This document shows positions 4,311 through 18,400 of a stretch of 64,000 bases of DNA, one piece after another. Source of the stretch: Escherichia coli (GTDB lineage Bacteria > Pseudomonadota > Gammaproteobacteria > Enterobacterales > Enterobacteriaceae); NCBI RefSeq assembly GCF_041886205.1, contig NZ_CP169029.1. One strand, written 5' to 3'. The translations under genes and the position numbers were made by a program. The number at the start of each line of letters is the position of its first letter. Position 1 is the stretch's first letter. Under the pieces are notes generated by a model, which worked only from the letters and a program-made list of their open reading frames with translations, was not told the origin of the DNA and ran no database searches.

Positions 4311-4505
4311 TAACCAATGAACTCCTCCCCCGAGTCCATATAAGAGTAAATGATTCGGTGCCAGTAGCGATACAGACTTCAGATTGAATATCAACTGTAC
4401 TGCTATCTCCCTAAAAGGTCATGCCCCATGTGAGCGTACAACGAGAGCCTTAATCCTTAATAGCGAAGAAGATTTCTCTAGTAGGTGGTAATGTAACCCA
4501 GATAT

Positions 4506-4898
4506 AACGGCTTCTTTAAACAGTTTATTTACCATCGTTTTCTTACCTAGCAGGCGCTGAAGTTCTTTAATTTTATTCATGGCGGCAGCAAGTTCAGAGG
4601 CCGGAATACCCTGTTCTTCGGCTGTCACAGTAGTGAAGCTTCCTTCAAGGTAATGATACGCCAGAGAAATAACTGGCTGGCAGCCACACCGTGTTGCCGG
4701 GCAACAAGGGAGACCGTCATTCCCGGTTCAAAACTCTGCTGAACAATAGCGATCTTTTCCTGTGTAGTACGCCGTCTGCGTTTCTCCGGTCCTAAGACAT
4801 CAATCATCTGCTCTCCAATGACTAGTCTAAAAACTAGTATTAAGACTATCACTTATTTAAGTGATACTGGTTGTCTGGAGATTCAGGGGGCCAGTCTA
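4506..4898 (-). mobile_element. insC: IS2 remnant (IRL plus degenerate, frameshifted insC/orfA; insD deleted)
   Basis: Reverse complement of 4869-4898 reads TAGACTGGCCCCCTGAATCTCCAGACAACC (IS2 left IR); ORFs 4625..4852 and 4419..4628 together match IS2 InsC ([49 protein letters not shown]... [23 protein letters not shown]) with a frameshift; similarity stops near 4506. Confidence 0.75.
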
Positions 4899-4900
4899 TA

Positions 4901-5115
4901 CACTACCTCAGGTAGATGATGAGATCAGATACAGGGATCAACTGACGGTGAGCGCAGGCCCGCGAGTGCCCTGATTTAGCGCTGGTTTTGCTTTCCCATC
5001 GAAGGGCCCATACATCATCACGCCCGCGAAACAGTCGACAAAATAACGCAACTTTCTCATCCGTGGATAATACGGAAACGCACTGCACAGGACTCTGCGG
5101 TTTACGTCACCATTC
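4901..5115 (-). pseudogene. N-terminal fragment of an unidentified island gene, cut off at the IS2 end
   Basis: Minus-strand ORF ...VQCVSVLSTDEKVALFCRLFRGRDDVWALRWESKTSAKSGHSRAC... ends with a stop 3 nt before the IS2 IRL; second frame ORF 4938..5132 overlaps. Confidence 0.3.
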
Positions 5116-5328
5116 AATCCCATAAGCTTCAAGTTATGTTTGCCCTCAGTGCAGCTAATTCATCACTGTCAGATTTATGAACCATAGTCGTTACCTGTAT
5201 CCGATCCACTGAGGCACCACGGCAGAAATTCGGGTCCCCTACACTGATGACAAAGCCGCCCTCTTCTGCCTATTAACTCAAGCACCTCCCAACAACTTAC
5301 AGAAACTTAATCCTAATACAACTGTAAT

Positions 5329-5892
5329 TCAGTTGTGTCGTGGTCGGCCGCGGTTGCTTTTTTCGGGAAGCCTGCTACGGCCCAGAATAATACCGTGTTC
5401 TTTCTGATCCTGTTTAGCCAGATAGCTAAGGGCGTAACGTAAGTTGTCTACCGCGGACTTATCACTATAGTGCATCACGTGATCGATACGCACCGGGTAT
5501 TTGTCTTTAGCCCGGCAAAGGTGAAAGTAACCCTCCCCTTCCGTGATCTGCCTCCAGATATCTCCCAGTTGCCTGGATATCTGATAAGAGTTCTTGTGAC
5601 GTTGCCCATCCAGGTAGCCGACAAAATGAATATGAAGCCCTTTGTTTTGTGTATATTCCATTACCCAGTAATATCCCGCCAACATCGATTGGGTTTCGCT
5701 AAGTAAGCGGTATATTTCCATACACATACTGTGCTTACAGCCATGACCAAAACTGGGCGTGTCTTTCCTGTAGGCAAAATCAATTCTGAAAGGTAACAGT
5801 TTAGAAAAACGTTGAAACAGACCTTCCATGTGTTCATTCACGTCTTTCAGAATCATGAAGTCCATTTCGTAATTGGGATTAGCATTATACAT
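5329..5892 (-). CDS. YagK/YfjJ-family (inovirus Gp2-like) cryptic-prophage protein
   Basis: 187-aa ORF in same orientation as alpA and the split gene, matching CP4-57-type gene order (alpA - yfjI-like - yfjJ-like); family assignment from recalled sequence similarity only. Confidence 0.4.
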   Translation of the reverse strand: MYNANPNYEMDFMILKDVNEHMEGLFQRFSKLLPFRIDFAYRKDTPSFGHGCKHSMCMEIYRLLSETQSMLAGYYWVMEYTQNKGLHIHFVGYLDGQRHKNSYQISRQLGDIWRQITEGEGYFHLCRAKDKYPVRIDHVMHYSDKSAVDNLRYALSYLAKQDQKEHGIILGRSRLPEKSNRGRPRHN

Positions 5893-6858
5893 TTTATAGT
5901 CCTTACTTTATAAAACTGACAGGAAAGTGGAATTACATAAATACTGAGAGTACAGAAACGCCGTACCGCGGCATTAATAAACGAGGTAACCAGCAGCACA
6001 GACAACCTGATAAAACTGTTTCGTATTACCTCATTACAGTAATAGGGTAATGATTCAGAATACAGTAAGACTCTCTTAAACTGAGGACCAGAACGAATTA
6101 CAATAAAAAACACACCTCATATAATTGAGTTTAAGAAAGCACCATTCAATTACTTACAGGAAATAATCTGATCTTCACAAAAGTCAGCATTGAATAGCCA
6201 CAGGCAACATCGCTATTAGTATTGCCGTACCATTAAGTAAAAACAGAGACTCTGCAGAGAGAGCCTACAGATATTTAATCTCACAATAAGAAGATTATTT
6301 CATACAGAAAAGATTATATTTACCCATAAACTGTAACGGAGCTATAACGTACGAACTAAAGACAATATACTCTAATAGTGTTCTGGTACGTAACTAGTAT
6401 TAAATACAAACCAGACATACATTCAGTGGATTAACTTTCTCAATATTACGCTATAAGTGTAGTAACATAATTTACACATAACTAAACTCCATACACCACC
6501 ACACTGTAGTGTATGGAGATATATGTATTACGCACATACAGAATACTTAGCATAAAGAGGAGTGATATTACGATAGAAAGAGATAAGACAACATAACAGA
6601 TAACATAACTCCCATTAATAATACTAATTAACCTAAATTATTTATTGAACACGAAAACAATGAAGGCCCCACCTCACCTCAGACTAAAGCCGACAATATC
6701 CTGAGCAACACTCTATCCAATAGTAAATAGTGGTTACACCAGTTATATTTACTGACTGACCTGTACCAGAGTTTTCTAATACAACGCTGACATGGTAAAG
6801 ACATTAGTCTCCTCCGCAAGTAGCAGAGGAGACTATATGTACTCAACGATTAAGTCGT

Positions 6859-7191
6859 TCAGAGGTCAAAGTTAGGTGCGACACACAACGTTTTTCCCTC
6901 AATAACCGGTACAACTCTGTTTTGTTCATACAGTAAATCCAGTAACCAGTTGATTTTATCCTTTTTCCGGAAACGGTTCGGACCACGCTGTAAAATGTCA
7001 TTTTTTTTCATACAGAGGATCCCCTTCTCAATACAATAGCTTTTTATCCAGTTGAAAAGTTCAAGCTCCTCTGGAATGAGTCGCACAGGTACGGTCAGGG
7101 CAGAGTTGTCAAAAGTTAACGGATTAGACAACCGCACATACTCATTACCGTACCATATTGCTAATTCTCTCGCCATTTCTGCAGTGTAAGG
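6859..7191 (-). pseudogene. C-terminal part of island gene split by IS186 (YfjI/DUF3987-like, putative replication-associated)
   Basis: ORF 6859..7176 is in frame with ORF 8530..9660 once IS186 and one TSD copy are removed. Confidence 0.6.
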
Positions 7192-7202
7192 GGAAATATC
7201 CC

Positions 7203-8541
7203 CATAAGCGCTAACTTAAGGGTTGTGGTATTACGCCTGATATGATTTAACGTGCCGATGAATTACTCTCACGATAACTGGTCAGCAATTCTGGCCCATA
7301 TTGGTAAGCCCGAAGAACTGGATACTTCGGCACGTAATGCCGGGGCTCTAACCCGCCGCCGCGAAATTCGTGATGCTGCAACTCTGCTACGTCTGGGGCT
7401 GGCTTACGGCCCCGGGGGGATGTCATTACGTGAAGTCACTGCATGGGCTCAGCTCCATGACGTTGCAACATTATCTGACGTGGCTCTCCTGAAGCGGCTG
7501 CGGAATGCCGCCGACTGGTTTGGCATACTTGCCGCACAAACACTTGCTGTACGCGCCGCAGTTACGGGTTGTACAAGCGGAAAGAGATTGCGTCTTGTCG
7601 ATGGAACAGCAATCAGTGCGCCCGGGGGCGGCAGCGCTGAATGGCGACTACATATGGGATATGATCCTCATACCTGTCAGTTCACTGATTTTGAGCTAAC
7701 CGACAGCAGAGACGCTGAACGGCTGGACCGATTTGCGCAAACGGCAGACGAGATACGCATTGCTGACCGGGGATTCGGTTCGCGTCCCGAATGTATCCGC
7801 TCACTTGCTTTTGGAGAAGCTGATTATATCGTCCGGGTTCACTGGCGAGGATTGCGCTGGTTAACTGCAGAAGGAATGCGCTTTGACATGATGGGTTTTC
7901 TGCGCGGGCTGGATTGCGGTAAGAACGGTGAAACCACTGTAATGATAGGCAATTCAGGTAATAAAAAAGCCGGAGCTCCCTTTCCGGCACGTCTCATTGC
8001 CGTATCACTTCCTCCCGAAAAAGCATTAATCAGTAAAACCCGACTGCTCAGCGAGAATCGTCGAAAAGGACGAGTAGTTCAGGCGGAAACGCTGGAAGCA
8101 GCGGGCCATGTGCTATTGCTAACATCATTACCGGAAGATGAATATTCAGCAGAGCAAGTGGCTGATTGTTACCGTCTGCGATGGCAAATTGAACTGGCTT
8201 TTAAGCGGCTCAAAAGTTTGCTGCACCTGGATGCTTTGCGTGCAAAGGAACCTGAACTCGCGAAAGCGTGGATATTTGCTAATCTACTCGCCGCATTTTT
8301 AATTGACGACATAATCCAGCCATCGCTGGATTTCCCCCCCAGAAGTGCCGGATCCGAAAAGAAGAACTAACTCGTTGTGGAGAATAACAAAAATGGTCAT
8401 CTGGAGCTTACAGGTGGCCATTCGTGGGACAGTATCCCTGACAGCCTACAAAACGCAATTGAAGAACGCGAGGCATCGTCTTAACGAGGCACCGAGGCGT
8501 CGCATTCTTCAGATGGTTCAACCCTTAAGTTAGCGCTTATG
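7203..8541 (+). mobile_element. IS186 (IS4 family), complete 1339-bp copy
   Basis: 23-bp terminal inverted repeats CATAAGCGCTAACTTAAGGGTTG at 7203-7225 and 8519-8541 (rc); flanked by 11-bp direct duplication GGAAATATCCC at 7192-7202 and 8542-8552 in a GGGG-N6-CCCC target. Confidence 0.85.
7252..8370 (+). CDS. insL: IS186 transposase (DDE, IS4 family)
   Basis: 372-aa ORF with C-terminal YRLRWQIELAFKRLK motif typical of IS4-family transposases; lies between the IS186 inverted repeats. Confidence 0.85.
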   Translation: MPMNYSHDNWSAILAHIGKPEELDTSARNAGALTRRREIRDAATLLRLGLAYGPGGMSLREVTAWAQLHDVATLSDVALLKRLRNAADWFGILAAQTLAVRAAVTGCTSGKRLRLVDGTAISAPGGGSAEWRLHMGYDPHTCQFTDFELTDSRDAERLDRFAQTADEIRIADRGFGSRPECIRSLAFGEADYIVRVHWRGLRWLTAEGMRFDMMGFLRGLDCGKNGETTVMIGNSGNKKAGAPFPARLIAVSLPPEKALISKTRLLSENRRKGRVVQAETLEAAGHVLLLTSLPEDEYSAEQVADCYRLRWQIELAFKRLKSLLHLDALRAKEPELAKAWIFANLLAAFLIDDIIQPSLDFPPRSAGSEKKN

Positions 8542-9660
8542 GGAAATATCCCCCTCTTCACCGCTCGAATGGTAAATAAGTCCTGCCAGTCTTGCCATAT
8601 ACTCTGCATTTTTAGCAGCATATTCCCGGCAATGTCTTAAAGGCCCCAATCCCCCCAGCTTCGATTCCACATCATTGTAATAATCCGTCCAGATTCTGGC
8701 AGCCTGAGGAGAAAAGTGAAGGCAACGTCGTTCACCACTCATCGCCAGACTTTCATCAATAAGCTCATTGATCCTCTCTTCAAACAAATCCTGATACTGT
8801 GATGAATAATTATCTCCGGTTATTATCCTTGTCCCCTGCGTTGATGTTGGTTGACACATCAAAAACCTTGCATGATGTCCTGACGTTTTCACAATTTCTT
8901 TTTTTCGCGTACAAAAACCTTTGTGGTAAACATCAGGCTGAATCATCACCGATATCGTCAGTCTTGGCTCCTTCAAATTAATTCCGGGAGATGATTTCCT
9001 GTCGATGAAAAGAGAACCTCCATCCCACAAAGTGTTAATAATTCCCAGTTTACTCATGGCCCGGCTGTCAAAAATTACCCCCCCTTCACTGGATACAAGA
9101 GCAAAAGAGCGATTGCTGTCGGAATAATATTTTAACATTCCCTCTATCGTTGTCTCATTAAAAATTGTTCGACGTATCTGCGGCGGAACAGGAGGTTTAT
9201 TCAGATGCGTTTCAAGCTCTGATTCTGTTGCCTTGTAATCTTTACCGGCACGAATCTCTTTATGAAATTTTGATTCCAGCGCTTTTTGTTTTTGCTCCCA
9301 TATTTCCTTTTCTGTACTGTAATTCTCAACCAGTTTCGCGTATTCTTCCGCCAGGGCTTCATCCCTGAGATAAAATGCTTTCATAAACACTTTATCCACG
9401 GTCGTTTTCCTTTCACCGGAATCAGCCAGAATCAGAGAGTAAAGATTAACAGGCCCATGTAAATTTCCAGGTCTGCACACGTCAATCTGATTCTGACAGG
9501 CAATTGAGATCGCTGTTAATGCGGATGTTGCCACCATAGCCAAAGGTGCCTGTGTATTTTTTTGAGTTTCAATTATTGCATTTCTCACCAGCGGTGGTAG
9601 TGCATATATCGGATAAGGATTTTCTGGTGCAAGTAAGCACATAAAAGCCTCTCTTTTCAT
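8542..9660 (-). pseudogene. N-terminal part of island gene split by IS186 (YfjI/DUF3987-like); as-is ORF reads into the IS to a stop at 8530
   Basis: 376-aa ORF 8530..9660; last codons (EEGDISHKR) are encoded by TSD and IS186 IR; reconstructed uninterrupted gene would be 483 aa. Confidence 0.6.
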
Positions 9661-10284: not shown

Positions 10285-10593
10285 TTATCTGCTCATGGTC
10301 ATATCTGAAGAAAGCGTATGTCGCACTTCGTCATTAACACCTTTGACTGCTGATCTGGCAGGTACAGTATGTAAAGTAAGCCATTCGTCAATAGCTGATG
10401 AACGCCAGCCCACAGAACCACTACCAAGACGTACCGGCCTGGGGAAGGTTGCATCGTAGTATTTCGATAACGGATTCATTTTTTCGTAAATTGTCGAACG
10501 AGATATACCTAACAATTGGCTCAGTTCAGGCATCCGTAAGATGCGTGAAGGAGTCCAGCAGTATCCGGATTGATCTGGCATTTTATCCCCCAT
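10285..10593 (-). CDS. alpA: AlpA-family phage/island HTH regulator (start codon uncertain; alternatives at 10581 or 10665)
   Basis: Contains ILRMPELSQLLGISRSTIYEKMNP...YDATFPRPVRLGSGSVGWRSSAIDEWL, matching the AlpA signature (YDATFP...SVGW...EIDEWL). Confidence 0.6.
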   Translation of the reverse strand: MGDKMPDQSGYCWTPSRILRMPELSQLLGISRSTIYEKMNPLSKYYDATFPRPVRLGSGSVGWRSSAIDEWLTLHTVPARSAVKGVNDEVRHTLSSDMTMSR

Positions 10594-10789
10594 AGTGTGG
10601 TGAACTGTCGTTACAGTTTGTATTCCCCGGGTAAATTTGTCTGCGTAAAAAAATGGGCTGAGCAAAAAGACAATAAATAATTAAAAATCAATACGATAGA
10701 AAACAACAGCATTATTGTTATTTTACTTTCACCTTATCGCTGTCGATTCTCATTATCATTCATTGGTAAAAAACAGCAAAAGAGGCCCT

Positions 10790-11693: not shown

Positions 11694-13511
11694 ATGTATA
11701 ATTTTATCACTATAATGTATGATGTCTTTTCATGTTTTGGTGTTCTGGCTAAAAACCAGAATACCCGTGACATCCGAAATATTAAAAATTTTTCCTCACA
11801 TCAATATTCACTGGGCGACATGTTTGATGAATTAATAAACATTATTGATAAAGAACAAGTATTGAGTACAGAACAACGAAAAGTTATATTTAGGAGATAT
11901 GAAGATCTCTATGTTAAGCTAATGCACTATTCTGTTTTTACAGACCAAACACATCAAATAATAAAACAAAAATATTTTAATGACATTGTACCAATGATTC
12001 TCGCACTCGACATCAGGAACACATATCGCCCGGATAATGAGATGGCATTTTACTATCATATTCATTCTTTTCTCACTCAGATACCGGATAATGAGGATGA
12101 TATATATCATGCTGCAAGGACATATCTGCGAAATTACGTTAAGTTATGTTTATCCGGATACACACCAGCGAATGCGCATTTCAAAGATATCTTTGATGGC
12201 GTATATGAATTCATTCGTAATATTCGCAAAAACAGTACACCAGGAAAAACAAAACTTATCGCAACTATCAACACATGCAAAGAAACCTGTAAACATCTGC
12301 TTTATTTAAGTAATGAAGACAAGGAAAAAATAATTTCTGACTTAGATAAAGTTCAGGTTGCATGTTATTATCTCACTATATTACTGGCTTTCGAAAGACG
12401 AACTTCATTAACAAGCACCCTGGCAACTTTATATAAAATGCTGATAAGCGAAAGAGAAGTTTCAGAATATGAATGCCAGTTATTATATTTAACCAACCCA
12501 ATAGATGTAATGAATATACTGAACAAATACATATATTACTTTCCTAATGAAAACTCACCATTTTATACACTGAAAATTGACAGTGCATTATCGTGGGATG
12601 CCATTGACGCAATACGAGACTATAGTATTTCTGATATTTATCTTTATCCTGAACAAAAAACAATAAATTGTGTCGTTGAGATTGAAAACATTGTCTTTGG
12701 CGGTTACATTTATACATTGAACAACGGCGTCACATTACAAAACATAGAAAACACTTTAAAAGATTCTTCATGCCATTATGTCTTAAATGGCTATACAGAA
12801 TTTGTTAACTGTTTGATACAACTTACTTCAGGAAAGACTGAAAGTGTTCATCGCACCATCAATAAACTGAACTATGAGAAATTACCTTTTGGATTTATCA
12901 TTGCCGCGTTTGCTATACTAAAGATAGCATTTAAAATAAAATTCAGTAAAAATCATGTAAATATCCGAGCATTATTAAATGACATCAATTATTTTATGAC
13001 TTATCAGGGCGAGTCCATTAACCTTATTTCACTGGATCACGAATACCCAGAGTCCTGTCTTCAAAATGACACAAACACATATTTATTAGGAAGAGTAATA
13101 TTTCTGTATAACTCAATGATTTATAAGTTCATAAACTGTCAGGAACATGAAACCAATAACATTCACTCAGCTATGATAAATAACCTATTACAGGAAGTTG
13201 ATATAGCCCTTGGTAAAATAAATAACATTATAGACAGCAGAAACATATCAGCCCCCCATGAACTGGCAAATATTCTTACCCGCGAAAAAATACTTACAAC
13301 ACGGGAAAAAAAAGGAAACCTGATAAGCCTGTTTGATGGATTCACTTTATTCCATTGTGTTGGAATGATAACCTTTCTTATCCATTATCTCAGAACACCT
13401 GAAGAAAAAGTTGAAAATATATTTATGTTATATGGTGCAGATAAAAACAATAAACTACGCAGAAGACTGATTTATGACGCACTAGGAATAATTCAGTCTC
13501 AGCAGGAGTGA
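11694..13511 (+). CDS. Hypothetical 605-aa protein, AT-rich cargo gene in the int-alpA hotspot; no recognisable catalytic motif
   Basis: Long uninterrupted ORF in very AT-rich DNA; SD aaaggaga 5 nt upstream of ATG; TATAAT at 11651-11656; convergent with integrase. Confidence 0.7.
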   Translation: MYNFITIMYDVFSCFGVLAKNQNTRDIRNIKNFSSHQYSLGDMFDELINIIDKEQVLSTEQRKVIFRRYEDLYVKLMHYSVFTDQTHQIIKQKYFNDIVPMILALDIRNTYRPDNEMAFYYHIHSFLTQIPDNEDDIYHAARTYLRNYVKLCLSGYTPANAHFKDIFDGVYEFIRNIRKNSTPGKTKLIATINTCKETCKHLLYLSNEDKEKIISDLDKVQVACYYLTILLAFERRTSLTSTLATLYKMLISEREVSEYECQLLYLTNPIDVMNILNKYIYYFPNENSPFYTLKIDSALSWDAIDAIRDYSISDIYLYPEQKTINCVVEIENIVFGGYIYTLNNGVTLQNIENTLKDSSCHYVLNGYTEFVNCLIQLTSGKTESVHRTINKLNYEKLPFGFIIAAFAILKIAFKIKFSKNHVNIRALLNDINYFMTYQGESINLISLDHEYPESCLQNDTNTYLLGRVIFLYNSMIYKFINCQEHETNNIHSAMINNLLQEVDIALGKINNIIDSRNISAPHELANILTREKILTTREKKGNLISLFDGFTLFHCVGMITFLIHYLRTPEEKVENIFMLYGADKNNKLRRRLIYDALGIIQSQQE

Positions 13512-13698: not shown

Positions 13699-14901
13699 TT
13701 ATTTATTCACAATTTGAGACATCACATAATCCGCCCATGCCTGCATCATCGGTACACGCTGCTCCAGTAGATCAGTACGATGATATGCCGCCTCAACCTT
13801 ATTTTTCAGCGTATGAGCGAGCGCCCTTTCCGCCAGATCCCGCGAATACCCCTGTTCACTACACCAGTCCCTGAATGTTGAGCGAAAACCATGTGCCGTG
13901 GCAACTCGCCCCGGAATGTCACTGACGGCTTTCTTTTTACGCAGAAAACTTGTCAACACCATATCGGAAAGGATCTGCTGCTTTCTGGGTGAAGGGAACA
14001 CCAGTTCATCATGCAGGCCACGTATATTTTCCAGAATGTAAATAGCCTGCCGGGATAAAGGAACACGATGCTGTAGCCTGGCTTTCATTCTTTCTGCAGG
14101 TATAGTCCATACCCGCTTATGAAAATCAATTTCAGCCCAGCGCATTCCCCTGGCTTCGCCCGAGCGAGTTGCTGTAAGTATCACCATTAATAACAGTGCG
14201 CGGGTAACATTATAAGGTTCATCACTATACACACTGGTCGCCACAAAAAGCGGTAACTGCCTCCAGGGCATTGCTGGTTGGTGTTCATCACGTCCTCTTG
14301 TCTGCTGAGGAAGCAAATGGTCAACCACATCAACAGGATTTGCCACACAAAAACCGTGCGCCCATCCCCACTGCATAACAACATGAATGCGCTGTTTAAC
14401 CCGGCTTGCCGTTTCTGACAAGGTTAACCAGACTGGACGCAGTGTTTCTGCCACGTCCGCAGCCGTAATCGAATCCAGCGTTTTTGCTCCCAGTTGAGGA
14501 AACGCGTAATTCTCAAGCGTCGATAACCACTGCCTTACATGCTTTGGATTTTCCCATCCTGGAGACAATTCTGCATGTACACGCCTGGCTGCATCGGCAA
14601 ATGTTGGGATAACGACTTTCTCAGATTCAGCCTTTTTAATCTCCAGAGGATCATCACCTGCAGCAAGTTGCTCTCGCATTATCCGGGCAGTACGTGCAGC
14701 TTCAGCAATACTGACCTCTGGGTAAGTTCCCAATCCAGCATTACGTCTTTTTTGTGTCACCGGACTTACATAACGAAAAACCCATTTCCCCCGCCCCTTT
14801 ACTGAAGAAGGATGAAGGGTCAGTCCGGTAATTCCCCCATGGGGCAATGGTTTGTCATCAGGTTTGATATGTCTTGCTTTCGTATCCGTCAATACTGCCA
14901 T
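13699..14901 (-). CDS. int: Tyrosine site-specific integrase, P4/CP4-57 IntA-like
   Basis: 400-aa ORF; N-terminal LTDTKARHIKP...FRYVSP arm-binding-type region and C-terminal catalytic motifs (HGFRSTFRDW, LAH, Y in EAAYHR). Confidence 0.9.
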   Translation of the reverse strand: MAVLTDTKARHIKPDDKPLPHGGITGLTLHPSSVKGRGKWVFRYVSPVTQKRRNAGLGTYPEVSIAEAARTARIMREQLAAGDDPLEIKKAESEKVVIPTFADAARRVHAELSPGWENPKHVRQWLSTLENYAFPQLGAKTLDSITAADVAETLRPVWLTLSETASRVKQRIHVVMQWGWAHGFCVANPVDVVDHLLPQQTRGRDEHQPAMPWRQLPLFVATSVYSDEPYNVTRALLLMVILTATRSGEARGMRWAEIDFHKRVWTIPAERMKARLQHRVPLSRQAIYILENIRGLHDELVFPSPRKQQILSDMVLTSFLRKKKAVSDIPGRVATAHGFRSTFRDWCSEQGYSRDLAERALAHTLKNKVEAAYHRTDLLEQRVPMMQAWADYVMSQIVNK

Positions 14902-15044: not shown

Positions 15045-15525
15045 GATTTATTTCAGGCGGTCCCCCTCACCGCCATATTTAAAGAAGAGCTCGTACGAAA
15101 GTACGGGCTTTTTTTTCGTATATTGCACACACCGGGGGGATGAGAATCCCCGACCGGGGGTCGACAACTGGCGGCAGCCAGTTGGACAGACCGTGAACGC
15201 AGTGAGCGGGCTGCCCGCAGGGCGAGCGAAGCGAGTCAATCCCCCCCTCACCGCCATATTTAAAGAAGAGCTCGTACGAAAGTACGGGCTTTTTTTTTCG
15301 TATATTGCACACACCGGGGGGATGAGAATCCCCGACCGGGGGTCGACAACTGGCGACAGCCAGTTGGACAGACCGTGAACGCAGTGAGCGGGCTGCCCGC
15401 AGGGCGAGCGAAGCGAGTCAATCCCCCCCTCACCGCCATATTTAAAGAAGAGCTCGTACGAAAGTACGGGCTTTTTTTCGTGTATTGCACACACCGGGGG
15501 GATGAGAATCCCCGACCGGGATACT
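15045..15525. repeat. Tandem direct repeat array, unit about 181 bp, about 2.7 copies
   Basis: Units begin near 15061, 15241 and 15421 with near-identical sequence; each has a terminator-like hairpin plus T-run (gagctcgtacgaaagtacgggcttttttt) and hairpins GGGGAT-GAGA-ATCCCC and CAACTGGC-N4-GCCAGTTG (loop differs between copies, stem conserved). Confidence 0.9.
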
Positions 15526-16805: not shown

Positions 16806-17729
16806 TTAACTGTATGCATGCAGCGTACGTTGGCAAAGTGCCGAACGTACGCAATCCTCTTTACCGAACCGGACGATCCCAACCATTTCATCTTCTTCGA
16901 AACGTTCCAGCGCGTCACTTAATCCGGAGCACACGCCGCGAGGCAAATCGCATTGCGTGATATCACCGTTGACGATAACTGTCACGTTCTCCCCGAGGCG
17001 GGTTAAAAACATTTTCATTTGCGCGGCAGTCACATTCTGCGCCTCGTCAAGAATGACGACTGCATTTTCAAAGGTACGTCCACGCATATAGGCGAAAGGC
17101 GCAATTTCCACCTTCCCTATTTCCGGTCGCAGGCAGTACTGCATAAAGGAAGCCCCTAAGCGCCGGACCAGCACGTCGTAAACCGGGCGAAAATAGGGAG
17201 CAAACTTTTCTGCGATATCTCCAGGTAAGAAGCCAAGATCTTCATCGGCTTGCAGAACTGGACGGGTGACGATAATCCTGTCGACATCCTTATGTATCAG
17301 GGCCTCTGCCGCTTTTGCTGCGCTGATCCAGGTTTTTCCGCACCCGGCTTCGCCCGTGGCGAATATCAGCTGCTTACTCTCAATAGCCTTCAGATAGTGC
17401 AATTGCGCTTCATTACGCGCGAGGATGGGCGAAGTATCGCGACTGTCGCGGGCCATACCAATGGCTTCTACGCCGCTCATTTGCACAAGCGAGGTGACCG
17501 ATTCTTCTTCACGCTGCTTATGGCTGCGCGAATCCCGTCTCAGCACACGTTTTGCCTCGCGACGAGCTTTGATCACTGCTTTTTGTCTTCCCATGGAGAG
17601 CACCTTGAGTTGTTTGTATTCATCACACGCGCCGTTGGCAGCGCGATTATGCGCACGAACATCAGAGGGTTGGCTTCCTTGTAAGCCATAGTTTGCTTTT
17701 GGATAAAATGCCGAAAAACGGCTACGCAC
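16806..17729 (-). CDS. phoH: PhoH ATPase core ORF; N-terminal extension appears frameshifted, so the full gene would span 16806..17869
   Basis: ORF with Walker A GEAGCGKT; separate upstream ORF 17573..17869 (MVTSYTGHVLDNQ...) with SD ggag overlaps it in another frame. Confidence 0.8.
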   Translation of the reverse strand: MRSRFSAFYPKANYGLQGSQPSDVRAHNRAANGACDEYKQLKVLSMGRQKAVIKARREAKRVLRRDSRSHKQREEESVTSLVQMSGVEAIGMARDSRDTSPILARNEAQLHYLKAIESKQLIFATGEAGCGKTWISAAKAAEALIHKDVDRIIVTRPVLQADEDLGFLPGDIAEKFAPYFRPVYDVLVRRLGASFMQYCLRPEIGKVEIAPFAYMRGRTFENAVVILDEAQNVTAAQMKMFLTRLGENVTVIVNGDITQCDLPRGVCSGLSDALERFEEDEMVGIVRFGKEDCVRSALCQRTLHAYS

Positions 17730-18070: not shown

Positions 18071-18400
18071 GCATCAGGCATCAGTGCACGATCGCCGGAT
18101 GCGGCGTAAACGCCTTATCCAGCCTACCAAACCCGCACCGATTATAGGCATGATAAGACGCGCAAGCGTCGCATCAGGCATCAGTGCACGATCGCCGGAT
18201 GCGGCGTAAACGCCTTATCCAGCCTACCAAACCCGCACCGATTGTAGGCATGATAAGACGCGCAAGCGTCGCATCAGGCATCAGCGCACGAACGCCGGAT
18301 GCGGCATCAACGCCTTATCCCGCCTACCGAACCCGCACCGATTGTAGGCATGATAAGACGCGCAAGCGTCGCATCAGGCATCAGCGCACGAATGCCTTAT
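18071..18400. repeat. BIME/REP array (three units of about 110 bp containing GCCGGATGCGGCGTAAACGCCTTATCC)
   Basis: Three near-identical copies of canonical REP palindromes between phoH promoter and efeB. Confidence 0.85.

Follow-up and report, generated by a model that had tools for sequence, protein, structure and literature searches.

A conserved AT-rich core upstream of a predicted HUH Rep-like gene in a noncoding gap of a CP4-57-like island of Escherichia coli

What is the role of a nearly gene-free gap of almost 1 kb in the interior of a genomic island? The question is raised by a stretch of 64,000 nucleotides from Escherichia coli (assembly GCF_041886205.1, contig NZ_CP169029.1), referred to here at its full length as the window, which carries a CP4-57-like integrative island with a P4-type integrase. 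Within this island, 966 bp (window 5893-6858; the gap or spacer) lie between the start codon of a 187-amino-acid gene on the minus strand (5329-5892; here Gp2) and the stop codon of a 105-amino-acid open reading frame (ORF) on the same strand (6859-7176), which belongs to a yfjI-like gene. A preliminary description of the window had singled out this spacer together with two hairpins in it, and had offered a noncoding RNA, an origin-like or packaging-like site, or decayed coding sequence as possible explanations. It was found that the gap is genuine non-coding DNA of the island, neither a gene remnant nor a known RNA, and that it contains, at 6609-6646, an AT-rich core site of roughly 35 bp which lies upstream of a family of predicted HUH Rep-like genes in several enteric genera (Erwinia, Citrobacter, Yersinia and Limnobaculum). 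The reading favoured here, with a probability of roughly 0.6, is that the gap would be the promoter/operator and/or nick-site (origin) region of the HUH gene, together with an expanded, junk-like leader.

A conserved core in a fast-evolving gap

The G+C content of the gap is 34.9% against 50.1% for the whole window, and its plus strand is markedly A-rich, with a strong skew of A over T. Each of the six frames contains 16-31 stop codons; the longest ORF has 86 amino acids, and frameshifts disrupt the two longest ORFs in most of the 33 distinct homologous variants. The AT-rich, ORF-poor character given in the preliminary description was thus borne out, as were its flanking genes, one of the YagK/YfjJ type and the other split; an element of the IS5 family of insertion sequences (IS) accounts for the split. 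Its suggestion of decayed coding sequence found no support. When the 10 longest open segments of the gap were compared with Pfam and PHROG, nothing was obtained below E = 0.08, and tblastx between spacers and tblastn against genes at the same position in related islands returned the core only; the tblastn query used for this purpose, the Hha gene that occupies the leader in loci L012 and L013, had no match to the spacer. The missing Pfam and PHROG matches, the missing translated similarity and the failure of the ORFs to be kept in homologues thus speak against a decayed gene. The Infernal comparison with Rfam covariance models that had been proposed earlier gave no match in window 4500-8500, even at E ≤ 1, and the leaders of 10 related loci had none at the gathering score.

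The spacer was found in 1466 of 5426 complete E. coli genomes, nearly always on the chromosome, and is annotated in none of them. At least 80% of its length was covered in only 563 of 1470 E. coli records, and the partial genome matches are dominated by a recurrent form with 70% coverage, the SS17-like form (O157:H7 SS17). Plasmid records with the spacer number only nine, several of which are megabase-sized and apparently chromosomal; a phage collection contained no match to the spacer DNA. Among ten aligned copies, the pairwise identity of the spacer between lineages was 87-93%, equal to or lower than the third-codon-position identity of the flanking genes (85-99%), and the length of 33 distinct full-length copies varied from 785 to 1012 nt, with many indels that are not multiples of three. 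As the spacer is no more similar between lineages than third codon positions are, and as these indels are many, most of it appears to be without strong constraint. Most of the gap, the first hairpin included, evolves fast and is dispensable.

The comparison with homologous islands that had also been proposed had a divided outcome, with a fast-evolving, indel-rich bulk and a conserved core. The core is the most conserved bin of the spacer and is centred on the exact 18-mer AATAATACTAATTAACCT at 6617-6634 (plus strand), which occurs once in the window, where 0.03 chance matches are expected; no second copy of the spacer or the core was found within the window. Read towards Gp2, the consensus is GAATTAAGGTTAATTARTATTATYnAAAGAAGTA, with conservation dropping on both sides, and it includes the palindrome AATTAA-GG-TTAATT just upstream of a -10-like TATTAT. 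In islands whose Gp2 is about 62-68% identical, only some 40 nt at 6602-6646 can still be aligned with the spacer. An origin-like or other cis-acting site, as earlier suggested, is thus plausible at this core, which had gone unnoticed, and not at the hairpins. Of the 5426 complete E. coli genomes, 2119 carry a 56-nt region around the core, Nissle 1917 and EDL933 among them, in up to four copies and never annotated.

Wherever the core is linked to a Gp2-like gene, it lies upstream of that gene in a fixed orientation. A metagenome scan with the 18-mer gave 123 loci, of which about 90 have a Gp2-like gene on one constant side and in one constant orientation, 145-1265 nt away, with proteins of only 58% and 39% identity among them; the remaining loci look like chance hits. 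Among homologues chosen by protein similarity, the core was recovered with one to three mismatches upstream of six out of eight testable genes, namely those of Erwinia (one mismatch, 133 nt from the ATG), Citrobacter (one, 249 nt), Y. enterocolitica (two, 133 nt), Y. intermedia (one, 142 nt), a soil contig from JGI (three, 167 nt) and Limnobaculum (three, 936 nt). The other two, from C. braakii and Rouxiella, have degenerate versions, and a Salmonella contig was too short for the core to be sought. The core persists with 0-3 mismatches in 18 down to 38-42% identity of the Gp2 protein, where about 5e-4 chance matches are expected per 1.5 kb. The distance from core to ATG is usually about 135 nt, and is 725 nt here.

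The upstream neighbour of the core may be YfjI, a 611-amino-acid protein or divergent GTPase genes, and the core stays with Gp2 in each case. In the islands of HUSEC2011 and 30EVA2, where the upstream gene is the one for the 611-amino-acid protein, the Gp2-proximal 767 nt of the spacer are kept and homology stops at spacer positions 767-768 (about window 6659), so that the breakpoint adjoins the core.

It could be argued that the whole spacer, core included, is functionless AT-rich filler, a decayed gene or horizontally acquired junk carried along with the island, in which the core merely reflects recent descent or serves as a recombination anchor. The near-synonymous rate and the many indels of the spacer bulk agree with such a view, as does the abundance of IS elements and pseudogenes in these islands. 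Filler would, however, hardly retain a core with at most three mismatches in 18 across genera in which the flanks can no longer be aligned and the adjacent protein is about 40% identical, and a decayed gene should have left some protein-family or translated similarity. This explanation is considered highly unlikely.

The Gp2-like protein and the role of the core

The Gp2-like protein has weak Pfam matches to REP_ORF2-G2P and YagK_YfjJ_C and carries the motifs FRIDFAY, GLHIHFVGY and YALSYLAK. Among 23 homologues, conservation of the residues H87, H89, Y157, K160 and E79 is complete or reaches at least 90%. The AlphaFold model of the protein has a predicted local distance difference test score (pLDDT) of 90, and its top Foldseek matches are the nuclease domains of B19 NS1 and of Rep from adeno-associated virus (AAV). 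Since the HUH histidines are intact, the catalytic tyrosine is conserved and the modelled fold is Rep-like, the protein is assigned, from its sequence and predicted structure, to the HUH-superfamily endonucleases. A gene of the AlpA family is found in nearly every core locus, often directly downstream of Gp2 and in the same direction; in one preprint, Gp2-like and AlpA genes are counted among the core genes of transducible islands in Pseudomonas, with no function assigned to them.

Read on the minus strand, the observed anatomy runs from the 3' end of yfjI with a hairpin at 6805-6835 to the core, and from there through about 720 nt of fast-evolving, U-rich and C-poor leader to Gp2. Transcription from the core, protein binding to it and nicking at it, which we infer, would fit this anatomy as follows. 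The hairpin at 6805-6835 would terminate or stabilise the yfjI transcript. The core belongs to the downstream HUH (Rep-like) gene and not to yfjI, and would act as the control region from which the HUH gene is expressed, with TATTAT as the -10-like element and the palindrome just upstream as a protein-binding site. It would probably serve, in addition, as the site that the HUH protein recognises or nicks, and thereby as the origin from which the excised island undergoes rolling-circle replication or transfer. The hairpin at 6487-6518 would at most attenuate transcription into Gp2. Because a terminator-like hairpin is located directly upstream, Gp2 should need a promoter of its own, for which the core is the only conserved candidate; and because no more than some 130-170 nt separate the core from its ATG in the simplest relatives, the leader appears to have expanded in this lineage, from about 135 to 725 nt.

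In rolling-circle replicons, the origin and the autoregulated promoter of the rep gene are commonly found in one place. Near-invariance over 18-30 bp at about 40% protein identity would more typically be found at HUH nick or recognition sites than at operators. That the core is the true nick site or origin of the widespread YagK/YfjJ HUH endonucleases, doubling as an autoregulated promoter, is put forward here as a tentative proposal.

A doubtful alternative, which nevertheless deserves to be taken seriously, is that the core is purely transcriptional, that is, the promoter and operator of a Gp2 or Gp2-AlpA operon with no part in nicking or replication. The binder would then be an island regulator such as the AlpA-family helix-turn-helix (HTH) protein, or a host nucleoid protein, and the long, terminator-rich leader would silence the nuclease until such a regulator acts. 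The invariable placement of the core, which in compact loci is about 130-170 nt from the ATG and thus at a normal distance between promoter and start, is consistent with such a role, as are the conserved TATTAT with the palindrome just upstream and the AlpA-family gene present in nearly every locus, often immediately after Gp2. The three terminator-like hairpins on the minus strand of the leader (1.3 expected) and the gene for an Hha-family silencer inserted into the leader of one lineage also fit it, and the hairpins that sequester the Shine-Dalgarno sequence in five other genera point to tight control of expression of this gene. An analogy, and an analogy alone, is provided by a protein of P. 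aeruginosa that is likewise named AlpA, which acts from a site between -35 and -10 and allows RNA polymerase to pass the terminators of the leader (PMC7969949, PMC9371919). An operator that co-evolves with its regulator would, however, seldom be near-invariant over 18-30 bp at such protein divergence; no -35 is conserved, and the core of the window fails a consensus promoter scan. The P. aeruginosa AlpA is, moreover, a larger, Q-like protein with the unrelated element GGGACG, so that the precedent is not transferable by homology.

Several observations weigh against the favoured reading of the core as promoter/operator and/or nick site. The metagenome loci, more than 120 in number, were selected by the 18-mer itself and are thus biased, and the second sample, for which homologues were picked by protein similarity alone and their contigs fetched, comprises only the eight testable loci. 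Distant paralogues lack the core, as was seen for K-12 YfjJ, a second YagK/YfjJ gene in L013 and the protein of an Acinetobacter plasmid. This plasmid of 4.76 kb has a 26%-identical Gp2 homologue alongside Rep genes of its own, and the protein search turned up no small replicon dependent on a close homologue of Gp2; as the only small plasmid with a distant homologue also has an ordinary Rep, the family is not demonstrated as a replication initiator. A fold of 6590-6660 was no better than that of shuffled sequences (z = 0.07), and no stable stem-loop was found at the core; with only an all-A/T palindrome, it is unlike the classical HUH nick sites that are borne on hairpins. On the promoter side, a simple sigma-70 scan of the window gave no minus-strand promoter at the core. 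TATTAT matches the -10 consensus in five of six positions, and several lineages have a weak -35 at a spacing of 16-18 nt from it; the -35 candidates match in three or four of six positions only, and their position is not conserved between lineages. Finally, the direct repeats that flank the core differ between islands whose Gp2 is about 97% identical and are not convincing iterons.

In the window, these repeats are the two tandem 12-mers reported by Tandem Repeats Finder. Of 15 lineages, 5 have significant repeats of a comparable kind but unrelated sequence on the Gp2 side of the core; none has them on the opposite side. Iterons were dropped as a defining feature, since they are absent in most lineages and do not covary with Gp2. 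A resemblance of the 12-mers to Ter sites, and one of the core to part of the phiX174 origin (ATTAATAACACTA against ATTAATAATACTA), were noted and are given no weight here. A protein-pattern scan of genome contigs yielded two Escherichia loci only and was of little use. Literature searches on YfjJ, YagK, DUF3987, Gp2 and the core sequence returned no study of this intergenic region and no mention of the core.

The leader and its hairpins

The perfect 10-bp hairpin of the preliminary description (CTCCATACAC-N12-GTGTATGGAG) lies exactly where it had been placed, at 6487-6518, and its arms can be lengthened to 13 bp if one mismatch is allowed, which leaves a loop of 6 nt. Among 500 dinucleotide-shuffled versions of the region, at least one perfect 10-bp hairpin arose in only 1.4%. 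As minus-strand RNA, the hairpin at 6487-6518 reaches -20.8 kcal/mol (z = -4.9), with 13 pairs followed by UUUAGUU, and was listed as terminator-like. About 11 of the 33 distinct variants, including the SS17-type form, lack it or have it truncated, and one compensatory pair between alleles (T:A to C:G) was observed in its stem. To judge from the aligned variants, the hairpin is under some constraint for stability, yet dispensable and lineage-specific; it may be an attenuator or terminator within the leader.

The stretch in which it lies is the least conserved of the spacer and prone to deletion. It is bounded by the short direct repeats AGACATACAT at 6413 and AGACAACATA at 6586; in the SS17/O157-type variant, the DNA exactly between two AGACA repeats is lost, and other variants have other deletions. 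Two copies of ATATTACG(C/A)TA(T/G)AA, at 6443-6456 and 6565-6578, flank the hairpin. These copies recall the tail of the CRESS nonanucleotide but sit in this dispensable stretch and are missing in many variants.

The noncoding RNA of the preliminary description would take the form of a minus-strand small RNA that starts at or near the core and ends at this hairpin and its U-rich tail (about 110-130 nt), unless the hairpin region is itself functional. Such an RNA is suggested by the hairpin with the UUUAGUU behind it, by the single compensatory pair and by the 146-nt stretch 6480-6625, which folds better than its shuffles (z = -3.7). It is made improbable by the lack of an Rfam match, by the low conservation of a stretch that about a third of the distinct variants, SS17-type included, have lost, and by the absence of a counterpart in the other lineages that keep the core. 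The hairpin should not be annotated as an RNA gene.

The second hairpin of the preliminary description proved real, at 6805-6835 on the minus strand and not at 6797-6828. It has a perfect 10-bp stem or, alternatively, 13-bp arms with a 5-nt loop, reaches -26.1 kcal/mol as minus-strand RNA (z = -7.1) and is found in all of the 33 distinct variants at -19 to -23 kcal/mol, with changes that are wobble or better pairing. It begins 24 nt past the yfjI stop codon, has a G+C-rich stem and was listed as terminator-like. The tail that follows is AAUGUCUUUAC, or UCUUUAC after the extended stem, with a U-run of UCUUU only. It is probably the intrinsic terminator of yfjI or a stabiliser of its 3' end.

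The leader on the minus strand is U-rich and C-poor (15% C), a composition that would be expected to help a long untranslated leader to escape Rho. A weak terminator-like hairpin is present at 6247-6271 in its Gp2-proximal part, and a Shine-Dalgarno sequence, AAGGA, at 5900-5904 (minus strand). The segment 5893-6402 is kept with Gp2 where the upstream gene differs (HUSEC2011, 30EVA2).

In the Gp2 leaders of Erwinia, Citrobacter, C. braakii and two Yersinia species, a hairpin pairs the Shine-Dalgarno sequence with an upstream anti-Shine-Dalgarno sequence (L138:3470-3500, L139:3455-3495, L140:3468-3496, L141:3459-3500, L143:2456-2500). The paired segments covary (CTTCCT/AGGAAG, GTTCCT/AGGAAC, ATCCT/AGGAT), which suggests translational control of the nuclease. 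Such a hairpin does not form in the lineage of the window (z = 0.27). In a related island type (L012:5294-5443 and L013:5294-5443), a gene for a 49-amino-acid regulator of the Hha/YmoA family lies between the core and Gp2; a further 750 nt or so without annotation separate the core from hha, and short GGTAGAATTACAG-like repeats adjoin the core.

The island and its relation to known systems

The features of the gap and its surroundings are collected in Table 1. The insertion that splits the yfjI-like gene was delimited with the help of strain C10, which has the same island, 98-99.9% identical, without the IS5-family element, colinearity breaking at window 7203/8541; its intact YfjI homologue of 477 amino acids matches DUF3987 with E = 1e-83.

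Table 1. Coordinates of features in and around the gap
Feature	Window position	Strand	Remarks
YagK/YfjJ-type gene ('inovirus-type Gp2 protein', RefSeq)	5329-5892	-	187 amino acids
Gp2-proximal part of the leader	5893-6402	-	82-97% majority identity per 30-nt bin, small non-3n indels (33 homologues)
Hypervariable, deletion-prone stretch	6403-6585		66-75% majority identity, 18-30% gaps; lowest in the spacer
Two tandem 12-mers, AGACAACATAAC and AGATAACATAAC	6586-6609		adjoin the core on the Gp2 side
AT-rich core	6609-6646	-	98.5% (33 variants)
3' flank of the yfjI-like gene	6647-6858	-	94-99% conserved among YfjI-type islands
YfjI/DUF3987 gene, C-terminal part	6859-7176	-	ORF, 105 amino acids
IS5-family insertion in the yfjI-like gene	~7204-8540		transposase ORF 7252-8370 (+)
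YfjI/DUF3987 gene, N-terminal part	8530-9660	-	ORF; split from the C-terminal part by the IS5-family element
AlpA-family HTH gene (PF05930)	10285-10665		
Tyrosine integrase	13699-14901		

The island further contains an IS1 remnant, a gene for a protein of 605 amino acids, remnants of a primase-helicase gene and IS3 remnants. The 605-amino-acid ORF (window 11694-13511, plus strand) lies between the integrase and the AlpA-like gene and has no Pfam match; its position is kept in other strains, where it is labelled 'hypothetical protein'. The decayed remnants of a primase-polymerase/SF2-helicase gene are found at window ~4400-5200, with IS3 fragments alongside; in intact islands, this gene follows Gp2, and in related strains it is labelled 'TOTE conflict system AEP' (787 amino acids). 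The cargo that adjoins Gp2 varies by strain and may be a KAP NTPase, CdiA or a group II intron. Just outside the integrase, at the end of the island, a 182-bp unit is present in 2.5 tandem copies of 98% identity (window 15062-15520); it includes a terminator-like GC hairpin with a T-run and may represent a duplicated attachment-site region. Rfam matches above the gathering score were obtained for Ysr251, antisense within the phoH region (window 16811-17004, plus strand), and for two adjacent copies of naRNA4, a nucleoid-associated RNA derived from repetitive extragenic palindromes (window 18147-18324, minus strand).

YagK/YfjJ/'Gp2' and its YfjI and AlpA neighbours are core genes of very common enterobacterial islands with defence and virulence cargo. 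If the nick-site reading were true, CP4-57-like islands, which are present in about 40% of E. coli and in other enteric genera, would replicate or mobilise by HUH rolling-circle mechanisms after excision. The conserved core offers a concrete substrate on which the questions of a nickase and of an origin or autoregulated switch of the island's own can be asked; it is a lead and not a demonstrated mechanism. The first-flagged hairpin is of low interest, and the core is a moderately interesting, testable lead.

With respect to intrinsic terminators, the hairpin at 6805-6835 shares the G+C-rich 13-bp stem close to a stop codon and is conserved in all variants, and that at 6487-6518 also has a U-rich tail; both differ in their short or interrupted U-tracts (UCUUUAC and UUUAGUU), which makes the efficiency of termination uncertain.

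Two known arrangements come closest, the double-strand origins that rolling-circle replicons have next to the rep gene and the promoter-operators of regulatory operons in mobile elements. The former include the Ff intergenic region upstream of gene II, the intergenic region of CRESS-DNA viruses and the 30-bp origin of phiX174. The locus described here resembles these rolling-circle origins in that the DNA immediately upstream of its HUH Rep-like gene is non-coding and AT-rich and in that a short motif is near-invariant while the protein diverges, with short repeats beside the core in some lineages. The nonanucleotide of CRESS-DNA viruses is TAGTATTAC or TAATATTAC. In the direction of the gene, the core includes TAGTATTAT, with TAATATTAT in its place in Erwinia and Yersinia, which matches the nonanucleotide in eight of nine positions with the same G/A alternative; this likeness was noticed post hoc in an AT-rich 35-mer and has an estimated chance probability of roughly 0.05. 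The locus differs from such origins in that no stable stem-loop presents the motif and in that only some lineages have the repeats, which do not track the protein. The protein is, furthermore, a bare nuclease domain of 187 amino acids on a chromosomal island, and its roles in nicking and replication are putative.

Among the promoter-operators of mobile elements, lambda PR' with Q and P. aeruginosa PalpB with AlpA (PMC7969949, PMC9371919), at which a factor binds between -35 and -10 and terminators are present in the leader, offer a second comparison. The core likewise overlaps a -10-like hexamer and the DNA just upstream, the leader has terminator-like hairpins, and the locus includes the gene of a small HTH regulator; in contrast to these systems, the -35 is not conserved here and the sequence has no relation to known elements bound by Q or AlpA. 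The AlpA binding element of P. aeruginosa, GGGACG (PMC9371919), is absent from the core, and the P. aeruginosa AlpA antitermination system, with its larger, Q-like factor and unrelated binding element, serves as an analogy only. A parallel in gene order is provided by yfjI-yfjJ in CP4-57 of K-12, which differs in its gap of only 152 bp, in having no core and in a YfjJ that is about 20% identical to the Gp2 described here, but shares the order of AlpA, YfjI and a YagK/YfjJ-family gene within an island with a P4-type integrase.

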